NCBI GenBank assembly: GCA_021432655.1
Contig: MU271184.1
Location: forward strand, 248,001-292,180
Length of the DNA stretch: 44,180 bases
DNA from: Atractiella rhizophila
Taxonomy: Eukaryota
Direction of reading: 5' to 3'
Shown here in pieces: positions 839-44,180 of the stretch. Within the stretch, counting starts at the first letter, position 1; each line of letters starts with the position of its first letter. The notes beneath the pieces are model-generated. The model was not told the origin of the DNA, made no database searches, and worked only from the letters and a program-made list of their open reading frames with translations. Position numbers and translations under genes: made by a program.

Positions 839-1072
839 TGTTGAACCTGAGGTTCATCAGAAAGACAGGAAGAGGAAAAGATGAGTATTGCATGTGAGCG
901 TGTGATAGGATGCTTACCTGAGGTTCATCAGAAAGACAGGAAGAGGAAAAGATGAACCTCAGGTAATGCGAACGAGACTAAACTACAGTAGCGGACGGAA
1001 CAGTCAGACGCGGAATGCGTAAGATGAACGGGAAACCAAAAACGAAAAGAGAAAAACAACCAAGCTTCAACA
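839..1072 (-). mobile_element. Solo LTR, 234 bp, with 5-bp TSD
   Basis: Termini TGTTGAA...TTCAACA (perfect 7-bp inverted repeat). TSD GTCTC at 834-838 and 1073-1077. Confidence 0.9.
847..917 (-). other. Putative 71-nt spliceosomal intron inside the solo LTR
   Basis: Minus strand reads CAG|GTAAGC...pyrimidine tract...CTGAT...CTCAG|GT. Its last 38 nt (847-884) duplicate the upstream 918-955. A perfect 16-bp hairpin (914-929/951-966) covers the donor. Confidence 0.65.
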
Positions 1073-6478: not shown

Positions 6479-7129
6479 ATCAAAATACACATTTCGCCAG
6501 CAGGCACATGTCATAGGGGGTCACTGTCAACAAAGGCTTGTGGCTTAGAGTAACTTATGAGCCCGGAAAGCTGTTAGCTAATTCATGTAGATCGGAGAGT
6601 AGTCGAACGATCTGTTGGATCGAAAGTGTCAAGGAAGAGGGGAGCATTGTAAGCTTGGGAGACGGCAGGAAAGGTAGACCATTCACGGCACAGGCAAGTC
6701 ATCCGTCTCTTTCAGAAGGCCATAATCTCAACAGCAAGCATATAGATGACAAGAGTGATCATCATGCCGTCCCTCTGAAGCCCTGATTTTACCTCTTATT
6801 TAGCACCACAATCATCCACTCAGATATCGATACTCCTTCTCAAGCCGAAAGACTAGGGTTTGTGCTCATCAGTGCAGATGTGATATCTGGTCAGGTTTCA
6901 GAAAAGGGGGGAGTGTTGTGTGTGAACCCCAGACGATGACACTCAAATAGGTGTTTGTTCCTAGATTCTTGATGTATGACATTTCCTCATAACCCATGAC
7001 AGCCCTACTAATCACAGCCAACTGACACAGCACCAACCGATATGTTCGCTGGCACTCTATCCTTTTCTGTCGCTAATGGTGGCTACTCAGTCTACATTCT
7101 GCTTGTCAGAACCACGCTTTATTAGGGTA

Positions 7130-7391
7130 GACAAGTGTGTCAGAGGCCTTCGTCCCTCAGGCCCCCCAACCCACTCGCAAGGGGCATGGCCCCTTGAACC
7201 CTACTGTGACTCTTGTGAGGGTTCGAGTCCAGTATGCAACACATTTTTCTACCCCTTTCAGAATAAAATTTCCTCGCGCATTCAGAAAGGCGCAAGCATG
7301 TTCAGTAAGATGGTGTAATTCATTTCGTTTCAATGTGCCTGCTGAAGGTGGTATGAACGCTCAAAAGTGCGTTTTATGACTCATGCCAAGA
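7130..7391 (+). repeat. Partial copy of the 5' half of the solo LTR at 41618-42155
   Basis: GACAAGTGTGTC...CTCATGCCAAGA aligns with the reverse complement of ~41895-42154. Confidence 0.85.
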
Positions 7392-7824
7392 ACGGATGGC
7401 TTTTAGAGGTAAGGATAAGGATAAGGATGCGCCTACACCAAGAGACAATTTATCTTTTGAGGAGCAAACAGGGATAAGGGTCGCACCAAATGGTTGTGTA
7501 AGGACTGTTCTCATGGATAGGGAGATGAATGGTGAGTCTTAGAGCCATAGGTTACCGCAAGGAATGATGAACCATTGCGACAGACGGTAATCGATTCGTT
7601 CGTAAAAAATTGGAGTCGAGAGGAAATAATTCACATAATCGATGATGAAACATGTTTTTACCCTACGCCTCATGTAGTCAATACTTATTTCGAATGATCT
7701 CTGCGCTACACACCTGCAGGACCCCTTGCCGGCGGCGACCCTCTATCAATTGTATGTGGCAGAACACCAGCTATTGAACAGCAGCAATGCGTTTCACCAT
7801 ATACTCGCCATATACATCACCTCC

Positions 7825-8078
7825 TGACAAAATCGTGCGCCTCCTCCTTTCGCCACTTGCGCACTTGCGCGTTTCCACTTTCGTCGAGCGTGTTCTGGAA
7901 CTGTGGCAACTTCTCTTTCGCCACAGGGACCTTAGCTATAAAACCCTTTCACCTGCAAGTGCGAGACTCACACTTATTTGTTATCTCGCACTTCGCAGGT
8001 AATGTAGTTCCCTTACATACTAAATGCAACACACACTTATTTGTTATCTCGCACTTCGCAGCGCTTGCAAATTTGTCA
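7825..8078 (+). mobile_element. Solo LTR, 254 bp, with 5-bp TSD
   Basis: Termini TGACAAA...TTTGTCA (7-bp inverted repeat). TSD CCTCC at 7820-7824 and 8079-8083. TATAAAA at 7937-7943. Confidence 0.9.
7999..8061 (+). other. Putative 63-nt spliceosomal intron inside the solo LTR
   Basis: CAG|GTAATG...TACTAAA...CGCAG. The last 30 nt (8032-8061) are identical to the upstream 7969-7998. Antisense arm 7951-7966 pairs with 7984-8000. Confidence 0.6.
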
Positions 8079-8375: not shown

Positions 8376-8630
8376 TTTCTGCAGGCAAAACCACTGCGAC
8401 GACACCCCGAGTTCAATCAGGATCAAGTAGTACACGCAGCTCGGTGAGTAGTTGTTCCTTGGAGCAGAAATGCCAGGCTGAACTAACTGCTGCATGCTGA
8501 TCTCGCGAGCCAGGTGGACGAGCTGATACGAATCGCTAGCCGTTCCCAATGTTTGTCGCGATTTCTCTACTTATCAGGCCTCAAAACATGCTGAATAGAG
8601 AATTTTACAGGTCTAAGAAGCGCTTTCCGC

Positions 8631-9815
8631 CTTCTCGCTCTCGAAAAACAAACCAGTTCGGTGTCTGACCAGCCTTCGACGACACGAATGCTTTTGGTAA
8701 TCGTGAAGTTGTTGAGTGAAAGGAGAGACTGGAATGAACTGAAGGAGCAGGTTCAGGCGTTGAGTAAGAAGCATGGACAACTTAGGGAGAGCACAAAGAA
8801 GATGGTTGGAGCGGTGATGGAGGTTTGGGAGGCGGGAAAGGCAGAGGAGGATGAGAGAGAGGGACTGACGGTCTGTCTGAGGGATGTTACGGAAGGAAAG
8901 GTTCGCTTTTCCCTATTCTTCTTATACTTACATTACGCACTGAGGAGCTGATTTCGGATTGATATGATAACAGATCTTCCTAGAACTTGAACGAGCTCGT
9001 CTCACTCGCCGACTCTCTGCGATGCTCGAACCAAAGGGAGAGGTGGCAGATGCGTAACGGATCATCCAAGAAAACGCAATTGAGACTTTCGGCGCCTTTG
9101 GCAGGAGAGAGAAGACGGCCTTCATCTTGGGGCAGATTTAGATTCTTGAAGCTCCGTTGCTAACAGGCTTCTCCGAAACCGCGACACCCCAAGGCATCTC
9201 CATCGACTTCCAATGAGCCATCGCGTAGCCATGACCAGGAGAAGCGACGAGTACTTAGGAGAACTATACAAGTTGATTGGAGAAGAAGGATTGACGCTGG
9301 TTGCCTGCATGATAAATACGATCCACTATCCCGGTGTGTCCTCTCTTGCTCAAGTTTAACCGGCCGGTTCCATCCTAAACTACGTGGGGGGCAGCGCTGC
9401 ACTTTCTCATTTCACAAATCTCTTCCAACGCCTCGATACCTTAACACTGCACCTATCCATCATCCACCCGTCTCCCCGTTCGCTTCCTCTTCCACCTCTT
9501 TCTCCACAAAGAGCTTCGTTCGAATGGTTCAACCTACCGAGAAGATTGTCTGTGCACTGGCCATGCTGTTCTCCACCTCAACTTTGTCGTTCTTGAATCT
9601 CGATTCGACTTTGATAGACTCTGAAGCTTAGCCGCTAGGTCAGATGGAAACAGCACAGGGAGCAGGATGATTGTTGGAGTATTGTGATAAGTCAGTATCC
9701 CTTCTTTTAAGCCTTATCTCACAATGAGCATGACCTCTTCGAATTCTAGCCGGATAACCTCACGCAGCGACGGACTGGGGGGAAACGGAGCGAGCTTGCT
9801 AAGGAGATAAGACAA
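8631..9815 (+). pseudogene. RPN5: 26S proteasome lid subunit Rpn5/PSMD12 relic
   Basis: LLALEKQT..SD..STTR..LSKKHGQL..LRDVTEGK, intron 8901-8973, then IFLELERARLTR..ETFG..RREKTAFIL. Premature TAA at 9055. Only scattered degenerate C-terminal traces (RIT..ETE..DKT) to ~9815, so the end is uncertain. Confidence 0.85.
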
Positions 9816-10888: not shown

Positions 10889-10999
10889 ATGTGGAAGAAA
10901 GGCTAGATTACACAGTTGGAAGGGAACGATCGCTCAATGTTCATGTGGAAGAAAGGCTAGAGTACACAGTTGGAAGGGAACGATCTCGCTCAATGTTCA
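10889..10999. repeat. Tandem duplication, 2 x ~54 bp
   Basis: ATGTGGAAGAAAGGCTAGA...CTCAATGTTC starts at 10889 and 10943; one substitution and a 2-nt indel. Confidence 0.95.
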
Positions 11000-11449: not shown

Positions 11450-14400
11450 ACCTTTGCACACAGCGGTTACAGAGGAGGTTTTAAAACGGGACTTAGCCAT
11501 GAACAGTTACCTCCAGGTTCTTCCAAAACCAACAAACCAAACCTTTCAAGGGATTTATGCCGGTTCATCGACTTCATCAAGGATGCCCACGACACCTCAT
11601 GCCTCCGTGCGGTTTCCATCAGTTCGGCAGCCTGGTTCGATGACTGGCCAATCTGGCTACGTGTAGCCATTAAATGCCAAAAGATCCACCAAAGCAATCC
11701 GAGATGTCATTTTTTGTTCCCCAGATCAGGTACACATTCAATATGTTCCAGAGCGGGAACAATGGATGCTTCTTGAAGTCGAAAGCAAGTTGAGGAGCCA
11801 CGCACCACCCGTAACTCACGCACATGCACGGAAGCCCTTTCGTACAAAGTTCGAGAACCACTCCTCAAACAAGCCATCCGCACCTACCACAGCCAGTCCC
11901 CACCCCATCGATCGCGAGCAAGAAAAGATGAGTATGTCTGGTGCCTGTACAACGGTCACAAATACAATGACTGCTACTCCACCAGAACCATTTCTGAAGC
12001 TGGAGGAAAGAACCTGGCTGCTGAAGGTCAGGGACAAGGGAAGCTCATTGTTGAAGGAAGTAGTGATAGGATACTTCTTCCATCAACTGCATTCTGGATG
12101 CAAATGGGGAGACCGTGGCAGCGCCAGCAAGCACACCTGCAGCGCTTGTGACAAGCCAGACTGCAGGGTCTGCTTTAGCCTCATGTTCTTTCAATTCAGC
12201 TAACATACCTTCACAGGCAACTAGTGCTCCACCAACCCGTTGAAGTCCCACTCCCCAGCATCCTTGAGCCTATGATCAAAATCGCCTATTCCAATGACCC
12301 TTTACAACAAATCATTACAACGTACAATGCAACGCAGACATATTCGAATACTACATCAACCGCTTCGGCCTTCACGACTTGTATCTCAACTCCGAAATTC
12401 ACATCCCTAACTGGATCCACAATGGCTTCCCACCTCGCATTGCCAACACAAACTTTGTTAAATTCACCCCCCGAACACTTCTACCCTTCACACCTCCAAA
12501 GCAAAGAAAGCCTTCGTATGCAGTTGGTGCCAGGAGGAACGTCTGCTGAACCGTCTCCTCGGCCCATTCACAGTGTCAACCCTGAACACAGTCTTCGATG
12601 GAGTCTGGAGGACTAGCCCAATCTCCATAGTCAACAAGGCAGGAGCACCTGGCGAGTTCCGCCTCGTTGTCGATTTCTCCCGGAAACCCCACTCTCAAAA
12701 CGTCCCCCCTCTCAAGTCAATTAATGACGATATCGACACTACCTTCTTCAGCAACAGGTGGGATGGTTTCCCTACCATGCGGCGCTTACTTCTCTCAGTT
12801 CCACAAGACACCGAGGTTATGACTCTGGACGTCAAAGCTGCCTTCAGGACTTTTTCAACTAGCCCGGATTCAAGGTGCTATTTCGTTTTCCAGGACTTCG
12901 AAGGTCAGTTCTGGGTAGATACGGTGGCCTCCTTTGGTTGTGCTTCTTGCCCCGGCAATTACGGGCTCTTGAATGACTGCTGGATCAACTTCGTCTCCTC
13001 GCTCTTCTGGATTGCCATTCACTGGGTCGACGACAACCTGTTCTTCAGATCTCGCTCTACCTCTCAGTGGTACAATCTGAGGGATGTCCGGAATATCCTA
13101 GAAGAGCTAGGTGTTCACATTAACAGAAAGAAGGCCTTTGATTTCTCTCATACGTTCAAGTACATTGGTTTCACTTGGAGCTTCGTCGACCGTTCCGTGT
13201 CCCTTCCCCACCTGAAACTCCTCAAAGCCGTCACCCTCCTAGAACTCTGGCTCGTCCCCGCCTTTGGTTCGATGCAAGCATAGACTGGGGAATCAGCACA
13301 GCGATCCAAGGTTATTGGTCCGTCTGGAAGTAGAAGTCTAGCTTGTCACGCTTGGACAAGGAGATAGGCTTTGACGAGATGCTGGCTTGTGAGCTGGGGA
13401 TTTATCTTCTCCATCACTTATTTTCCACGCTGCCCTCTAAATTCAATGTCCCCTCATCACACCGCGGTTCCATCATCCTTCACGCCGACAACACAGGTGT
13501 CCGGTTTATCCTTGACAAAGGTTGGACTTCCAACGTCAACTCCAATTCATCTCTGAAGCGCATTTATGCCGTCTGCCAACAGCTACGAACTCTCTTCGCG
13601 TTGGCTAGCCTCCGGACTGACTCACTGTCACACGGCAATTTCTAATCCTTCGACCCTTTATTATTCTCCCCATTTCCCCCCACCACAGATCTCCAACTTA
13701 GTATTGTATTTCTGCAGCTATCCACACCTCTTATGTAGGGTTTCTTCCTCAGAACCCAGTTTCGAACCCTTTATCTAATAGTTTTCCATGGATACTTCCT
13801 TACCCTTTACTTATAGTTATAGGGCTCTCCCCTATACCCTTCCTTCCTTCTCCTAATGAGTAGCCCTAATTTCATCGATTTGGCAAATCTGCAGCGGCTG
13901 TGTTTTTTTCTCAGGCGCAGTTAGAGCCAGCCTCATACCAAATCCAGTCCTCTATCCCCCCTCTTTCTTTGCTCACACCTTTATCCTCCATGGGGCGGTC
14001 CACACTCATGATTCCCTATGTTCATAAGTCTTCTACTTCATGGCACCACAGCCTGAAAGGTGTCTCCAAGACAAACACTCCTTCACACGGACAACCTCAC
14101 TCTGAGTACCTCAGCAGCTCAGCCTGCATTGCGATTTCGGGTTTCTCTACCACACTCAGAAAACTGCACGCTTTCGAAGCAGAACACTCCAACTTGCGAG
14201 CTAAGGAAGCCTTTAACCCAGACATCTCAACGTCTCTTACAATGGACTGGCGCCTCCACTCCAGACGTGGACCGCCTCACCATCAACAAGGTCATACGGT
14301 GTATTCAGAGGGTCGTAACTGCTGCTGAATATGCCCCTGGCACCCTGGACTCCTACTCCTCTGCTATCCCGAAGTATTTGGAGTTGTGTGACAAGTCTGC

Positions 14401-21899: not shown

Positions 21900-24800
21900 C
21901 CAGCTACATTAGCCGACTCGGAATCGAGTACGGAATCAAACGAAAGCCTACCAAGAATCAGAACAAGGCAACAGGCGAGATTCCGTCAGCTACCACCGAC
22001 CCCTTTCGCCACTGGCAGCGTCAGACCGAGCAGTGCACGGGGACAAAGGAATACCAACTGTAACCGAAGAACAGAGACAGTTGGCACAAGGATATGAACT
22101 GCTGCAAAAGGATCCTTGAGAGGCGACAACGGAACAACAGTCAGAGCGCTAAAAAAGTGGACAAGAGGGAAGTTGTTTCACATTAGTATTGAAGTTGGAA
22201 CAGCTTGGAAAGGACCACTGGAAGGTCACATCAACACGTGCGATCATAGACAAAGAGGCGACCAGAAGTTTGATGAGCAAGGACTTCTATCTAAAGAACC
22301 AAAGAAACCTGCCCCCCTTCTTCTGTCAGACAGTTCGCTGATAACTGGGAATGGATCAGTAGCTCTACCAATTGGCAGGATAACGACTCGATCAGCAGTT
22401 ATCAACGACCCACAACTAGCCGAGGCCCAGTTCGAGATCCTGGACGCAGGGTGAGCGTTTGATGTACTCCTCAGCAAAGGATGGAAAGAAGACATGGAAG
22501 CGATTCACTTCTACAAATGGGACGTCATATGCTTCATGCCAACGGATGACAGCAAGACTTGGAAATGTTATAGGAACGAAACGATTGGATCAACTCAACC
22601 GCCTTGGAACCTTCCATCAAACCCCCTCGACATCGTTAAATTACTCACCTCCGGAACCATATTCTACTTCAACACCACCACCAACCATGACACCAATTTA
22701 TCCTCACAATTCAAAATTATCGACAACTCTCACGAAATAGATGAAGAAATATTTGTGCTAGAGCAGTACAAGAAAATCCTGGATTACCGTCCCCACCCAG
22801 GTGCCCGTTGGATCGACGCTAGGGGACGTGTAGAGCACCGATTCGACAGGCAAGGCCAAGGGGAGGGAGCGGTGGCCAGCTCAGCCGTTGAAAAATACTG
22901 CTCCTTTTTCGCTCCTGGCGAAAAGCATGAGCATGATCCTTACTATTCACACCAGCACAATGCTAAACCCTCCTATACATTCTGAGAGAAGGATCACGTG
23001 CCGCTCCAAAGCTTGATAGCCAGCTTGAAGGACAACCTTTGAAGGCTAAAACATCCTGGAGTTAACCCTCCAGCCCCAGGTACCCGTTGGGTCAATGCTA
23101 GGGGAGGAGGATAGCGATTTTGACTCAGTGGGCACATGACCGGGGTGGAGTGGAGGCTAGCCCAGCCATTGGCTCTGTAAAGCTTGCGTTATGCAGTGCT
23201 CCGGTCTTACGATCTCCACACTTCGCTTCAGATTCAGAATTCGTTGCCCAATCAGGGGCATGTCGGCATGGGTTCGCAACTACACTCAGCCAACGATTCG
23301 ACGATGGCATCATCTACCCAGTCGGATATGCATCCCGAAAGACAACACCCAGCGAATCGCTCTATTCAGCCCCACTGCTTGAACTTGCAGGTCTCAAATA
23401 TAGCTTAGACTATTGGAGAGACCTGACCCTGGGATTCCCAATTGATGTCAAAACCGATTGTCGCTCACTCCTAACCATACTCAAAAATGAGAAGCTGAGT
23501 CCTGCGCATGGAGTGATGGAGGGAATGTCTATTCACCCACAACATCCGCTGCATTGAACATGTCTTAGGTAGTGTGAACTATTGCTGCAATATGATGTCT
23601 GCAGCACCTGTGGGAGAAGCTGGGAAGGTGACATGGGAATCATGGATGGAGATAGAAGGGTTAAAGGACGAGTCGTTCCAAGAAGCACTGGGGGGGAAGC
23701 AATGGGTGATGATGGTTAAGGAGGATCCGGAGGTAAAGGAGTTGCTCAAGAGATTTGAAGGAGATGAGGTATTCGAGGGAATCCTTCACCTGATCCTATT
23801 CCTCTCACTCAAGGACGGAACTCCCAAACATCTGAAAGAAGTCATCCGTCAACAAGCAACCTCCTATGTCTACCGAAAAGGGGAACTCCTGTTCGTCCAG
23901 AGGAGAAGGGAATACAAATGCGTTCCAAGAAGAGAAGTAAAAAATCTCATCATTTCAGCACATGAACAACAATGCCAGCAGGACGGGATCTAACCCTCTG
24001 GCACATCAAACAGAAGCACTACTGGCCAACAATGCAGGCTGATGTCACAGAATATGTCCTTTCATGCCCATTGTGCCAACGCTTCGGTCCATCAAGCCGA
24101 AACTTCCTCCTCCAACCGATACTCAAACTCGCTCCACTCTCCCTTGTCTCTTTCAATGTCCTCACACTCCCAGAGTGCAAAAAAGTACGTATGTTTGGGA
24201 AACCAGTCTGCAAGGTAGCGATAGCCTGCGATCACTTCACTGGATTTCGATGGGCAGTAATGTTGTCGAACGAGAAAGCTGAGCTTGGGGTACGCATCTT
24301 CAACAAACTCATAAACCATGCCGGCCCTTGCAATGTTCGATGGAGGTGGAACCTTCAACAACGAGGAACTGAAAGCGAGAATCAAGGAAGTTGGGACGAT
24401 TGCACATTTCACACCGGCTCTGCAACCATCGACGAATGGATTTCTGGAGAACAAAAACCACACTACCTCGAGCGATGCAGGAAAAATGCACCTGCAGGGG
24501 AAACGGACACGAGCAGCACTTGGGCCCTCAGGTTGGACGAAGACATAAACTCCCTCAACCGAGACAAGATTAAAAGCCATGGCTTCATGCCCACGGAGCT
24601 ACTCCATGGATGGAACCCATCGGACCGGCGCATGCTTACGTCCGAGGACGTGAGGGACTTGGTGGAAGGCGACAAGGAACCGACAAGAAAGGAGATTGAG
24701 GTATATCTAGGACAATTGGAGGCAAAAAGAGAACAAGCATTCATTAACAGGGACAAGTATACGGCAAAAATGAAGGAGAATTTCGATAAACATGCGAACC

Positions 24801-25057
24801 TGGTCAACTTCAAGGTGAATGACCTCGTCATGGTGATGGACAGCACTATTCGCACGCAACACTCACGAAAACTCGAAGCCAGGTGGTTTGGACCGTTCAA
24901 AATCGTCGGGAAAAGAGGAAACATCGATGGAGAAGAATCAGCAAATGCACAGTCCTGGATTTTGGAAACATTAACCGGAGTGAGAATAGGTGGATACTTC
25001 CACAACCAATGCCTTAAACGCTTTCATGCGAGGGATCCTAAAGCGGAAGGGATTTAG
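21900..25057 (+). mobile_element. Ty3/Gypsy LTR retrotransposon remnant (RNase H + integrase; no RT)
   Basis: RNase H: YPVGYASRKT..ELAGLKYSL..TDCRSL (23120-23557). Integrase: H..HYWPTM..CPLCQ, DHFT, and GPY/F motif KLEARWFGPFKIV (23972-25057). Frameshifted. Confidence 0.9.
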
Positions 25058-41300: not shown

Positions 41301-42268
41301 TGAGACTCTGCAAAAAGCGAGTTGCTTTAGCTCGACTAGAGCGTGAACTAAGAGGCTCAATCAATAAATGAGAGCTTAAAAGAAAAGGAGAGACAGGAAC
41401 CAGCTTATGCTAGCCACACTGAAGTGTAGGGCCGCTTATCAAGCTATCTGGTCTCAGAATAAAGACAATGGATCTTACAGGGGCGCTTCTACGGCCCGGG
41501 GAACTTACCTCGATTCTTACCACACTTTCTACTGTGAGTGCGAAGTAAGATGATGAGGAATAAGATGCATTTACACTAACAATTGAGGCTTCTTATATAG
41601 GCCAATGAATCGGATAATGACGCGATACAGATCTGTAAGCACTGCAAATCGAGCCACAAAAGCGATTAGAATACATTTCATTGGTACTTAAGAGAAATAA
41701 CTTCACCTGCAAATGCGAGCCACAAATCTAGCATATTTGTGAGAAATATCACCGTAGCCCGTCGCCGTTCCTTGAGCCAATTATCAAGCAATAGAAGAAG
41801 AAAAAAGGAAAGAGAAAAAGTCACAAGACCAAAATGACGTACGAAGTGAGAAATGGGAATGCGCAAATGTCCATCTTATTCCTCTATCATCAGTGTCTTG
41901 GCATGAGTCATAAGACGCACTTTTGAGCATTCATACCTCCCTCAGCAAGGATGTTGAAATGAAATGAATGACACCAGCTTATTGCATATGCTTGTGTCTT
42001 CCTGAATCTGCAGGGAAATTTTTTTCTGCAGAGGTCAAAAAATGTGTTTCATACTGGACTCGAACCCTCACAAGGGTCACAGAAGGAAGGGTTCAAGGGC
42101 CATGCCCCTTAAGAGTGGGTTGGGGGGCCTGAGGGACCCGTTGACACACTTGTCAGATAAAGATCAAACAACATCGCGAGAAAACCCGTAATACACGAGT
42201 AGATAGAAATATGGAATGATCTAAAAGCGTGGAACGAAGAGGAAGCTGAAGGGAACCAATGAGTCTCG
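41301..42268 (-). mobile_element. LTR-like repeat (copy of 1-394) interrupted by a solo LTR; far boundary uncertain
   Basis: 41301-41617 is rc of ~83-394; 42161-42243 is rc of 1-~83. Confidence 0.75.
41618..42155 (-). mobile_element. Solo LTR, 538 bp, with 5-bp TSD (Copia-related)
   Basis: Termini TGAC...GTCA. TSD GATAA at 41613-41617 and 42156-42160. ~41618-41875 is homologous to the Copia LTR at 43374-43549. Contains a putative intron 41642-41706 with a duplicated ~20-nt unit. Confidence 0.9.
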
Positions 42269-42846
42269 CCAGGGAATCGACGGATCTCGCCTTCCAGCTT
42301 CTAAATAAGGCTAAAATACCATGCAGTTATCTCTCCCTTTTCTCCCGATCTATCGTACCCACTCTGAGTCGACAGGAGAGGTGTAGAGAGACGGGGGAGT
42401 TGTGAGGTACTCAATGGTCAATGGGACTTCCAAGTTAGGCAGGAGCCGCCTCCAGAATAGGAAGGTATTGCCGCATTTGACCATTGTGTCTCCCAAGTCC
42501 ATTGGGATTTGAGGGGCTGAGTTATTGGCAGGAGTGACAGGATGATAATGAGAAAGCTTGCTAACATCGAACGGATCTCGGCATCCACCCCATCTGCCGC
42601 CACTTGAATTGAGGTCCTCCGAATATGCTGTCATGCATGCTTTTCACTCCCATGCTGCTCCGATTCCTTTCAACCTTCCAAAAACGGCGAATTTTTGTCC
42701 GTTTCTACGTTCCAATTCAAGGAGGTCTCCCAGATTATGCTCTTTCATTCAATATCTAACCGGGCTATTTTGCAGCTAGTCCACTCCACTGTTCGATCCA
42801 AAACCTGCTCCTCAACCCTCCAGCTTCAGAGCTCTTTGACTGAAGA

Positions 42847-43340
42847 TTGCCATTAGTGGATGTGAATGAAGACCTTGTTGGCTATTCCGATTCCGATTTC
42901 GCCGCCAGCCACGATCGAAGGTCCATTTCAGGAACGCTCTTCACGCGCGCTGGAGGAGCGGTAATTTGGAACAGTAAGAAACAATCTCTAGTTACGTTGT
43001 CATCATCAACAGAGGCCGAATATGTTGCATTGTCGTCAGCCGCAAGAGAAGCATCATGGATCAGGAATCTCTTCAAGGATCTCCAAATCCCTCTCGCTTT
43101 TCCCATCACTATCTACGGCGACAACCTTTGTTCCATCAACTTGCCAACAAGCTCATCTTCAGACAACGAACCAAACATATTGATGTCCCATTTCACTATA
43201 CACGCGAATGTGTCTCTAATCGAAAAATCGAGCTTCAATACATGGATACGAAGGAACTTCCAGCAGATATCCTTACAAAGGGAGTAAGCAAGATGAAGTT
43301 GGAAGGAGCAATGAGTAAATTTGGGATGATGAATGAGTGA
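42847..43340 (+). mobile_element. Ty1/Copia RNase H (3' end of pol), one frameshift
   Basis: LVGYSDSDFA..RRSISG..WNSKKQ..STEAEY..DN..RTKHIDV..ADILTK. Confidence 0.95.
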
Positions 43341-43373
43341 AAGATGCATGAAATATGAATGTGAGGGGGAGTT

Positions 43374-43549
43374 TGATGGACTTTTGCACAGTCTCATTTC
43401 TCTTTCTTCTTCTGTTGCTTGATAATTGGCTCAAGGAACGGTGACGGGCTACGGTGATATTTTCTCACAAATATGCAAGACCCCTGCAGTGCGAGTCCCA
43501 TAGCTTTTTTGGCTCGTATTTGCAGTGCTTACAGCTCAGTATCTCATCA
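43374..43549 (+). mobile_element. Copia 3' LTR, 176 bp
   Basis: Follows the polypurine tract GAGGGGGAG (43363-43371). Termini TGATG...CATCA. Homologous to rc(41618-41875). Confidence 0.88.
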
Positions 43550-44180
43550 AAGCTGGCTAGCGCAGTAGCTCCTTAATTGCAGAAAGCAACCAACAATTTA
43601 TCATTGTGTCGAGAAGCAGTTCACAACGAAATCTCAATGAAACTAAAGATAACAACATTGACCGGAAAGCGATCACAGCTTACTTAAACCATGAGTCATT
43701 GAGGAAACCGGATTGCCTGCGGGAATGACGAAAATTTGGCATTTCAAAGTTGGAAAAAAGTTGGAAACATGCCGTCTTGGTTCTGATCTTCCATTTCACG
43801 GAGAATTTCTGCCGTCCTCTTAACAATGTCACCATCAGGTAACGCTTCGGTGCTGTTCGGGTCAAGGAAAAAAGCTTTCAGATTGTCCCACGTCAATAGC
43901 TGGATTCTTCCACCCAGCATCCTCGGATAGACATAGACGCCTTCAGGAGCAATGGAGATGTTGGAGTTCCCTATTAAAGTATGTCAGCAGATGAACCATC
44001 ATTCCAGGAGGCCAGACCTGCTTCCATTCTGTTCTGGTGGAGAGCTGGATAATCGTGCTTTCGAGATATTTAGTGATATCCTTTCTCAGGATTCCAATTT
44101 GGTTTGGTTAATGTGCTTGTGAACATTCGACGATATCCGTTTTATTGACCGCTCGAGATGAAAAATGCATCTGGGAGGCG

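Follow-up and report, generated by a model that had tools for sequence, protein, structure and literature searches.

In the window analysed here (the whole 44,180-nt stretch of Atractiella rhizophila DNA), a solo LTR on the minus strand and the 3′ LTR of a Ty1/copia fragment on the plus strand are each derived, judged by a homologous outgroup module, from a complete layout of which each has lost one part. We regard it as plausible, if just short of probable, that the two are different deletion derivatives of one ancestral end module, and that the unit missing from one of them is a leader intron re-copied at first-strand transfer. An element that replicates through RNA is expected to lose any spliced intron, and textbooks explain the lack of introns in the inherited parts of LTR elements in this way. 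If the reading is true, an LTR element could be spliced and yet transmit its intron, and the layout that allows this would solve the problem of intron loss in a new way; it would also bear on how LTR elements set the ends of their RNA, and possibly on their interaction with splicing-linked silencing. What this locus adds is a neighbouring pair of natural deletion variants, an outgroup from which the direction of change can be read, and a direct repeat (X and X′) whose copies stay identical while X diverges between relatives.

Anatomy of the Solo LTR

41618-42155, minus strand: solo LTR, 538 bp, TGACAAG...GCGTCA, with TG..CA ends
41876-42155, minus strand: first 280 nt (5′ part) of the solo LTR, without counterpart in the Copia 3′ LTR
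41707-41726 (read 41726-41707), minus strand: X, TTTGTGGCTCGCATTTGCAG, its CAG end directly before GT
41642-41706, minus strand: 65-nt intron-like unit, GTGAAG...TTCTAAT...CAG, by direct reading
41618-41641, minus strand: 24-nt tail, TGCTTACAGATCTGTATCGCGTCA, with the LTR end ..GTCA at 41618

The solo LTR has TG..CA termini and lies between the two copies of a 5-bp GATAA target-site duplication (left copy 41613-41617, right copy 42156-42160). It interrupts another repeat, the uninterrupted paralogous site of which is found at 1-394 of the window; alignment to this uninterrupted copy, CGGATAAAAGATC, supports the duplication. Empty sites are also represented by DNA contigs that bridge 41610/11/16/17 to 42159-42183 and skip the insert. 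Termini, duplication and empty paralogous site together identify the insert as a solo LTR. Its 5′ 280-nt part is highly repetitive in the genome, with summed contig depth maximal at 41867-41947, and 42154-41888 is 83.2% alike to 7130-7398.

Introns have GT..AG ends and a CTRAY motif 10-30 nt before the 3′ end, and fungal donors usually have G at position +5. The 65-nt unit has GT..AG ends and a branch-like CTAAT at nt 38-42, 24 nt before the end of the unit, and carries A at position +5. X′ makes up the final 19 nt of the unit (41660-41642) and copies X except for one missing C. The core of X, TGGCTCGNATTTGCAG, occurs twice in the 44 kb against 0.20 occurrences expected, a count that misses X′ owing to the 1-nt gap in that copy. 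X of the solo LTR lacks the first ~10 nt that X has in the Copia LTR and in the outgroup at 7937-8078.

In the solo LTR, folding revealed no arm that could pair with X (z -0.11 and +0.13). The best score in a complement search was 8, which was equalled in 27% of 1000 shuffles. Since this plain Watson-Crick search is blind to wobble arms, the Copia LTR used as positive control scoring only 6, the absence of an arm rests on the folding.

Anatomy of the Copia Fragment

42844-43340, plus strand: RNase H part at the 3′ end of a Ty1/copia pol, split by a frameshift over two frames; element 5′-truncated
43363-43371, plus strand: polypurine tract (PPT), GAGGGGGAG, 2 nt upstream of the LTR
43374-43549, plus strand: 3′ LTR of the Copia fragment, 176 bp, TGATGG...CATCA, with TG..CA ends
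43484-43497, plus strand: arm, forming 14 bp with the 3′ end of X (43511-43525), including 3 G-U pairs and one bulge
43498-43525, plus strand: single full-length X, CCCATAGCTTTTTTGGCTCGTATTTGCAG, followed by the tail (43526-43549); the 65-nt unit is absent

The RNase H remnant matches Ty1/copia polyproteins, with 681 proteins at E<=1e-5 among 2172 candidates, a best match at E 1.1e-23, and 53-57% identity in the best five. Among the 120 matches listed, most bear PF07727, and the full-length ones listed also bear PF14223, PF13976, and PF00665. Scanned directly against Pfam, the two RNase H ORFs matched 0 families. The copia-type RNase H and a PPT adjoining a TG..CA 3′ LTR place 42844-43549 in Ty1/copia. 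The window holds no 5′ LTR, PBS, gag, IN, or RT of this element, which is 5′-truncated.

The arm and X of this LTR fold at -17.3 kcal/mol in a 50-nt piece (z -3.6, 0/200 shuffles as good), and the fold is unexceptional in an 80-nt context (z -1.05, 31/200 shuffles). The first-pass annotation had described this LTR as arm, one X and tail, which direct reading bears out. The same holds for its account of the solo LTR as X, a 65-nt GTGAAG..TTCTAAT..X′ segment, a 24-nt tail and no arm, the coordinates of which agree with direct reading and with the folds. It had also linked the whole architecture to Ty1/copia; this link stands for the LTR of the arm-X-tail form, which adjoins the PPT and the copia-type RNase H, and would be an extrapolation for the 538-bp solo LTR and the outgroup module.

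Comparison of the Two LTRs

The two related LTRs are separated by 1.6 kb. Their likeness is confined to the last ~258 bp of the solo LTR (41875-41618) and falls into matching blocks of 78 nt (94.9%), 47 nt (87.2%), and 28 nt (85.7%). The 47-nt block (41663-41618 vs 43503-43549) contains the 24-nt tail, and the tails alone are identical at 20/24 positions. The solo LTR carries 44 extra nt (41847-41804) without counterpart in the Copia LTR. With this 44-nt indel and the 280-nt 5′ part lying between the same two LTRs, the family appears prone to indels anyway. Their earlier assignment to one family is thus only partly right: it may hold for the last ~258 bp and does not extend to the 44-nt block or the 280-nt 5′ part, which the two LTRs do not share.

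Removal of the 65-nt unit from the solo LTR layout gives exactly the junction of X and tail (X|tail) seen in the Copia LTR. In alignment, the region differs between the LTRs as a replacement (65 nt vs 24-27 nt) rather than as one clean indel, and global alignment at four gap settings produced four different gap placements. The earlier statement that the intron is precisely absent from the Copia LTR is therefore right as to the expected junction and ambiguous as to precision, because X and X′ are near-identical. Treating arm and intron as two independent presence/absence characters holds up, as does the anatomy on which that treatment was built. The cause proposed for the loss, strong-stop transfer landing on the first X, does predict the observed X|tail junction, but DNA recombination, which the annotation had itself named, and template switching by reverse transcriptase (RT) predict the same one, so that three mechanisms share a single product.

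The Outgroup Module and the Polarity of the Losses

7937-8078, plus strand: outgroup module, closing an LTR-like repeat that starts near 7128
7937-7943, plus strand: TATAAAA, by direct reading
7951-7966, plus strand: arm, homologous to the Copia LTR arm at 43484-43497
7966-7998, plus strand: X
7999-8061, plus strand: 63-nt unit, GTAATG..ACTAAAT..CAG
8029-8061, plus strand: X′, 30 nt exact against X; the tail runs to 8078

The repeat of the outgroup module begins (7966/7969) directly after the arm. Counted from the first T of TATAAAA (7937), this lies 29-32 nt on, a distance at which a transcription start is expected, and it suggests that transcription would start at the beginning of X. The larger repeat around this module has neither a confirmed target-site duplication nor adjoining Copia genes, and its status as an LTR derives from its likeness to the 5′ part of the solo LTR.

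Homology between the modules is clearest for arm and X. End to end, the Copia arm and X score 38 against 7951-7998, compared with 12.9 ± 2.6 for shuffled sequences (0/2000). The score of 20 between X of the solo LTR and the outgroup X (7966-7998) was equalled by 3/2000 shuffles, and that between the outgroup and solo LTR tails by 42/2000. The non-repeated spacer of 7999-8061 aligns only marginally with the 65-nt unit (81/2000 shuffles equal the score).

Since the outgroup module has arm, X, unit, and X′, both LTRs are best read as derived and the complete layout as ancestral. By this comparison, the solo LTR retains the 65-nt unit and has lost 25 nt, comprising the arm and the start (first third) of X; the Copia 3′ LTR retains the arm and the full X and has lost the 65-nt unit. 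The outgroup module likewise indicates that an intron-less, arm-less form is not ancestral. The homologous unit at 7999-8061 and the contig depth over 41624-41704 argue that the 65-nt unit is not restricted to the solo LTR.

Within modules, X and X′ are identical at 30/30 positions in the outgroup (7969-7998 / 8032-8061) and at 19/20 in the solo LTR, whereas X differs from the outgroup X at about 6/22 aligned columns. Identity within LTRs despite divergence between homologous modules favours copying between X and X′. Given the marginal homology of the spacer, each lineage may instead have gained its repeat by a recent duplication of its own.

A Second Complete Module and Predicted Hairpins

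845-966, minus strand: second complete module, unrelated in sequence to the others
966-951, minus strand: arm
955-918, minus strand: X
917-847, minus strand: 71-nt unit, GTAAGC..CTGAT..CAG
884-847, minus strand: X′, 40 nt exact including the following GT

A search of the window for direct repeats (12-nt exact seeds, 35-150 nt spacing) found four loci. Two have repeats of 30-40 nt with a unique spacer, and both place GT right after X...CAG; of the remaining two, one is a tandem duplication of a whole 55-nt unit (three seed runs) and one a 12-nt match. The solo LTR repeat escapes the 12-nt seed, and the GT right after X...CAG was there read directly. Mononucleotide shuffles of the window gave 0-3 direct-repeat matches of at least 10 nt. 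In all three spacer-type modules X′ ends in CAG, and the units measure 63, 71, and 65 nt. Shuffle-tested alignment of the module at 845-966 with the other modules detected no sequence likeness. The donors GTGAAG and GTAATG, two of the three, lack the usual G at +5.

The hairpin predicted for the module at 7937-8078 (-26.8 kcal/mol, z -6.8, 0/200 shuffles) includes the donor GU, and that of the module at 845-966 (-28.8 kcal/mol, z -7.4, 0/200 shuffles) covers the donor GUAA. With the Copia LTR included, the predicted hairpins (z -3.6, -6.8, and -7.4) are consistent in silico with masking of the donor by an upstream arm. The only host-type gene close to these elements is a pseudogene, truncated and interrupted by in-frame stops; its splice sites are degraded, and it is no guide to the intron lengths of the host.

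DNA Contigs and Database Searches

Two runs (X1 and X2) provided DNA contigs, all short, from one sample; a third (X3), tentatively taken as RNA, is from a different organism (share 0.06), with 11 contigs placed and 0 across the 65-nt unit. The undeleted form of X was found in contigs that carry the full GGCTCGCATTTGCAG before the tail, 6 in X1 and 5 in X2 (extra base after 41649). Among the 15 joints listed, of 19 in these short contigs, none skips the 65-nt unit. Five joints on opposite strands connect the two LTRs (41709/43508, 41715/43490, 41726/43505, 41764/43459, and 41836/43402) and show that further variants exist. The joint 41726/43505 (X2, depth 141, side 69, 3 shared letters) fits a copy in which arm, X, and unit follow one another, if the orientation is as we infer. 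A further contig joint leads from 41875 to 42159 (side 23).

Metagenome contigs scanned with a 21-nt LTR core and with the X+tail junction yielded 0 stretches in each case. Rfam searches had no match in the window at the gathering threshold, nor at E<=1 on 41500-43700, and a tRNA search of the window found none. A literature search on introns within LTRs returned no description of such a unit.

A Proposed Leader Intron Rebuilt by Strand Transfer and Its Alternatives

The anatomy and boundaries of the modules, their homology, the polarity of both losses and the predicted hairpins are the established ground for the following proposal, in which splicing, transcription start, strand transfer, and the role of the arm are inferred. 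The ancestral module would have read promoter, arm, X, GT..(about 45 nt)..X′-AG, and a short tail, and the unit would be a short spliceosomal leader intron between the transcription start (set directly behind the arm, where X begins) and the sequence serving as R. Splicing would give the RNA a 5′ end of X|tail. Minus-strand strong-stop DNA made from this end could then anneal to the identical X′|tail of an unspliced 3′ LTR, in which the arm, borne by U3, would hide the donor. Synthesis onward through spacer, X, arm, and U3 would rebuild the intron and rewrite X′ as a copy of X. An arm-X-tail LTR would be the product of a failed step, whether by transfer to the first X, repeat switching by RT, or later DNA recombination. 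The model predicts a start at the beginning of X, an X|tail junction, and polyadenylation downstream of X′. Re-copying does not foresee an arm-less LTR such as the solo LTR, which requires a separate deletion.

The module evidence fits and favours, short of proof, this rebuilding of a leader intron. Stated for fungal LTR retrotransposons as a class, the proposition is that a true intron lies between the start and the functional R, that splicing creates the R-U5 end, that transfer onto X′ rebuilds the intron every cycle while the U3 arm keeps the 3′ copy unspliced, and that the two LTRs are failure products (intron lost and arm lost); in this form we advance it tentatively, as possible rather than probable.

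Ordinary LTR length variation is the less likely but still serious account. Here, the 65 nt would belong to R/U5 and stay unspliced, the 20-nt direct repeat would be neutral, the GT..AG ends would be coincidental or irrelevant, and unit and arm would have gone by replication slippage, DNA recombination between repeats, or RT template switching. Such variation is in keeping with the two further indels (44 and 280 nt) between the same LTRs, with donors that depart from the usual consensus at +5, with the marginal spacer homology, and with the unremarkable Copia hairpin in its 80-nt context; RT deletion between direct repeats is, moreover, frequent and precise (PMC3187697). What it leaves unaccounted for is that 3/3 spacer-type repeats put GT directly after X...CAG in units of 63-71 nt, one of them of unrelated sequence, and that strong predicted hairpins cover the donor in both complete modules. 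Neutral drift also does not predict that X equals X′ while X has diverged between homologous modules. Chance or artefact, with X/X′ and arm coincidental in a low-complexity LTR or created by mis-assembly, is already disfavoured and seems very improbable. It could draw on the short X (only 20 nt), the gap in X′, and the ambiguous alignment of the variable region, but the X core exceeds expectation tenfold (2 vs 0.20), homologous and analogous modules with 30-40-nt exact repeats occur in the same window, and the region is covered by independent DNA contigs from two runs of one sample.

A further alternative, which we consider improbable, retains the donor and dispenses with removal of the unit. 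As in foamy viruses, the donor would bind U1 snRNP and silence the poly(A) site of the 5′ LTR, the U3 arm would mask it in the 3′ LTR so that cleavage occurs there, and X′ and the AG would be incidental. In foamy viruses, the major donor does precede the poly(A) signal within the LTR, and U1 is blocked at the 3′ LTR by an alternative RNA structure (PMC3694450); likewise, the hairpins predicted here would occlude the donor, and the arm lies just upstream of the putative start site. However, poly(A) control leaves unexplained X′ and its identity with X, the AG end, the CTAAT/ACTAAAT/CTGAT motifs, and the possibly host-intron-like length in three modules, and no poly(A) signal or site was identified.

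Relation to Known Systems

The proposed leader intron has partial parallels in several systems. The foamy virus LTR has its major splice donor in R, under a structure-dependent switch (Schrom et al., 2013; PMC3694450). The modules described here would resemble it in a donor inside the LTR near the RNA start, in a predicted RNA structure, possible only in the 3′ copy, that would hide this donor, and in identical 5′ and 3′ LTRs that would behave differently. Foamy viruses differ in that their acceptors are far downstream, and the cited account, where it treats the LTR, describes neither an intron wholly within it nor an exon copy at the acceptor. They are, furthermore, retroviruses of vertebrates, whereas the present element is a fungal Ty1/copia element known from its sequence alone.

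Penelope-like elements include a 75-bp 5′-UTR intron in the Penelope pseudo-LTR and a 398-bp one in Chlamys-3_cRei (PMC8557442). As in the putative case here, a short spliceosomal intron in a terminal repeat, just after the start, is kept through retrotransposition. These elements differ by target-primed reverse transcription, a GIY-YIG nuclease, and pseudo-LTRs that arise by tandem insertion, and the cited account of their introns leaves the retention unexplained and describes no exon-copy repeat or arm. A Penelope-like identity for the present elements was rejected, as the coding remnant is copia-type and the 5-bp duplication around the solo LTR is of the integrase type.

Split-intron retroviral vectors (Ismail et al., 2000, as reviewed in PMC3182074) carry the donor in the 3′ LTR, with the acceptor located downstream of the packaging signal. 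Reverse transcription, via LTR duplication, assembles a working intron in the provirus, as is proposed here. These vectors differ in being engineered, and their intron is made once in the target cell and is not maintained; as reviewed, they involve no repeat-guided strand transfer. Finally, retroviral RT can delete between direct repeats with precise loss of one repeat copy and the intervening sequence, the documented cases involving repeats of about 100 to 700 bp with a frequency that falls with repeat length, against 20-40 nt here (PMC3187697). Such a deletion gives exactly the X|tail junction of the Copia LTR; it accounts for the loss only, and for neither the layout nor the identity of X and X′.

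Anatomy of the Two LTRs

A solo LTR on the minus strand and the 3′ LTR of a Copia fragment on the plus strand (the Copia LTR) share parts of a module in which X, a short sequence just before a donor GT, recurs as X′ at the end of an intron-like GT..AG unit, followed by a tail, the LTR end. A stretch 5′ of X that can pair with it is termed the arm. Direct reading bore out the first-pass annotation's coordinates and description of X, the 65-nt unit, the tail and the Copia LTR:

41726-41707, minus strand: X of the solo LTR, TTTGTGGCTCGCATTTGCAG
41706-41642, minus strand: 65-nt unit, GTGAAG...TTCTAAT...CGC-TTTTGTGGCTCG-ATTTGCAG
41641-41618, minus strand: tail of the solo LTR, TGCTTACAGATCTGTATCGCGTCA
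43363-43371, plus strand: GAGGGGGAG, between the pol remnant and the Copia LTR
43374-43549, plus strand: Copia LTR, 176 bp, TG..CA
43484-43497, plus strand: arm of the Copia LTR, pairing with 43511-43525 (14 bp, three G-U, one bulge)

Upstream of X, the minus strand of the solo LTR end reads ...CACAAATATGCTAGA, and X′ is the final 19 nt of the unit. Two occurrences of the X core were counted in the window, where chance predicts 0.20. The solo LTR extends from 41618 to 42155 (538 bp, TGACAAG...GCGTCA), which is larger than first implied, and is flanked on both sides by GATAA. It sits inside another repeat, whose uninterrupted copy at 1-394 has CGGATAAAAGATC across the site, and DNA contigs of a single sample, sequenced in two runs (X1 and X2), link 41610-41617 straight to 42159-42183. 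With these corrected boundaries, the observation itself is real and beyond chance. The host repeat has two inverted copies that are ~90% identical (1-394 and 41301-41617 plus 42159-42241); the second, the insertion target, is matched by many DNA-run contigs.

The Copia fragment comprises the 3′ end of a copia-type pol (42844-43340, plus strand) in two frames with a frameshift. This remnant matches 681 proteins at E<=1e-5 among 2172 candidates; PF07727 is found in most of the 120 listed matches, the full-length ones having gag-copia and integrase domains. A Pfam search of the two remnant ORFs returned no family. The segments of the Copia LTR are, in order, ...CACAAATATGCAAGA, CCCCTGCAGTGCGAGTCCCATAGCTTTTTTGGCTCGTATTTGCAG and TGCTTACAGCTCAGTATCTCATCA.

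The two LTRs had been assigned to one Copia LTR family. Likeness does extend over the last ~258 bp of the solo LTR (blocks of 78 nt at 94.9%, 47 nt at 87.2% and 28 nt at 85.7% identity), but the rest is unlike, with 44 nt (41847-41804) and the 280-nt 5′ part of the solo LTR absent from the Copia LTR, making them relatives rather than copies of one LTR. The intron had also been called precisely absent from the Copia LTR; the unit is indeed missing, but the X region is a replacement (65 nt versus 24-27 nt) rather than one clean gap, and alignments made with MAFFT and under four gap settings disagreed on where the gaps fall. Record 20 of run X3, a contig of 401 nt that comes from another organism, matches solo LTR 41875-41816 and Copia LTR 43403-43483 and then diverges after ...GCAAGACCC; a related species therefore has this LTR core, though its module region is different.

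The Copia arm and X fold better as a 50-nt piece than 200 of 200 shuffles (z -3.6) and are unremarkable in an 80-nt context (z -1.05). As the first-pass annotation had it, the solo LTR has no arm: its folds score z -0.11 and +0.13, and a complement search gave nothing above chance. The arm-less junction at 41728 is present in one X1 contig (depth 98, a summed depth rather than a copy count) and in none from X2, and the arm-less form therefore looks rare.

Complete Modules in the Window

One scan of the 44-kb window looked for GT..AG segments bordered by direct repeats and another for close direct repeats of any kind; they returned two complete units, the first being homologous to both LTRs and serving as outgroup:

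7937-8078, plus strand: outgroup module, with TATAAAA, arm 7951-7966, X 7966-7998, 63-nt unit 7999-8061 and 17-nt tail
966-845, minus strand: second module, with arm, X and a 71-nt GTAAGC..CTGAT..CAG unit ending in a 40-nt exact repeat

The last 30 nt of the outgroup unit (GTAATG..ACTAAAT..CAG) repeat X exactly. The second module is unrelated in sequence to the others. Arm and X are predicted to form hairpins of -26.8 kcal/mol in the outgroup and -28.8 kcal/mol in the second module (z -6.8 and -7.4; 0 of 200 shuffles each), both including the donor GU; that of the second module has 16 bp and covers GUAA. A weak zf-RVT match lies at 1130-1699 on the strand opposite to this module. Apart from these units, the 44 kb has just two close direct repeats, one 12-nt match and a plain ~55-nt tandem duplication (10889-10999), in which, in contrast to the X...X′ modules, the entire unit is repeated. 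Transposable elements abound in the window, further retroelement remnants being RVT_1 (12462-13280) and gypsy-type RT_RNaseH_2 plus Integrase_H2C2 (23102-25054).

The outgroup module terminates an LTR-like repeat (7128-8078), which over its first 270 nt shares 83% identity with the solo LTR 5′ part. No target duplication was found for this repeat (flanks TAGGG and CCTCC), and its downstream neighbor is a PSMD12/CSN4-like pseudogene fragment rather than Copia genes; its LTR status is thus backed by neither. Since the repeat, with its TATA box and complete module, lies ~400 bp upstream of the fragment, it could be the fragment's promoter and 5′-UTR intron. The truncated pseudogene (8496-9138) covers just residues 10-182 of a ~500-aa PSMD12/CSN4-type protein and has in-frame stops; its ORF at 8595-8948 has 84-87% identity to two proteins source-named Atractiella rhizophila.

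Direction of Change

The Copia arm plus X (45 nt) and outgroup 7951-7998 align over their full lengths (score 38 versus 12.9 ± 2.6; 0 of 2000 shuffles). Against the same outgroup, the score of the solo LTR X is reached by 3 of 2000 shuffles and that of the tail by 42; alignment of the spacer, the non-repeated part of the unit, is marginal (81 of 2000). The homology of arm plus X, X and tail places the complete layout before the split between the LTRs. Both therefore probably derive from one ancestral module by deletion; as judged by alignment, the Copia LTR would have lost the 65-nt unit and the solo LTR a 25-nt stretch comprising the arm and ~10 nt at the start of X, which would explain why its X is just 20 nt. 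The sequence preceding solo X′, TCTAATCGC, still resembles the Copia X start, CCCATAGC. For a contig joint from X2 between 41726 and 43505 (summed depth 141, shorter side 69 letters, 3 shared letters), the best reading is a genomic copy uniting arm, X and unit, with the orientation of the joint inferred.

A Possible Re-Copying Cycle

X differs between homologous modules at ~6 of 22 aligned columns, yet X and X′ within one LTR are identical at 30 of 30 positions in the outgroup and 19 of 20 in the solo LTR. This is expected of re-copying in each cycle and not of a one-off neutral duplication, and it is the weightiest observation for mechanism. In such a cycle, transcription would start at the first bases of X, which in the outgroup begins directly after the arm, 29-32 nt past the TATA box; a TATA-to-start distance of that order is expected. 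Splicing out the unit would leave an RNA 5′ end of X joined to the tail, from which strong-stop DNA would match X′ and tail in the LTR copy at the 3′ end; there the U3 arm could hide the donor. Extension from there would restore spacer, X and arm, the new X′ being a copy of the old X. Transfer onto the first X instead would yield arm, X and tail, the form of the Copia LTR. This product is the same from first-X transfer, from reverse transcriptase switching between direct repeats, or from DNA recombination; a review describes such switching in retroviruses as frequent and precise, though length-dependent (PMC3187697). Contigs with an undeleted X/X′ form before the tail exist, and their source copies may be unit-bearing or not.

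On the tests made within this window, a spliced, re-copied leader intron is the best single explanation of the module, tentative and unproven, with a chance somewhat below even. The usual donor consensus has G at +5, and its lack in two of three module donors counts against this explanation. So do the marginal spacer homology, the other indels separating the solo and Copia LTRs, and the poorly backed LTR status of the outgroup; the arm-less solo LTR requires an additional deletion outside the proposed cycle.

No description of an LTR-internal intron unit with an exon copy at the acceptor was found in a literature search. Penelope-like elements keep a short 5′-UTR intron in the pseudo-LTR (PMC8557442), split-intron vectors can assemble an intron through LTR duplication (PMC3182074), and the foamy virus LTR has in R a donor that acts through U1 to silence the 5′ poly(A) site, an alternative 3′ LTR structure masking the donor (PMC3694450). 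None of these has an intron wholly inside the LTR with an exon copy at the acceptor; the foamy virus LTR is the nearest functional parallel to the module, here known from sequence and predicted folds.

The Repeated 5′ Part of the Solo LTR

The 5′ 270-280 nt common to two otherwise different LTRs (41876-42155 and 7130-7398) form the region's most repeated stretch, and summed contig depth peaks at 41867-41947. Within this part of the solo LTR, GGTTCGAGTCC (42066-42056) resembles a tRNA box B; ARAGORN and Rfam gave no match for the stretch. The solo LTR also contains the purine-rich GATAGAGGAATAAG (41877-41890, minus strand), immediately ahead of the position corresponding to the Copia LTR start; speculatively, this would fit 5′ growth of the LTR via priming from an upstream purine tract.
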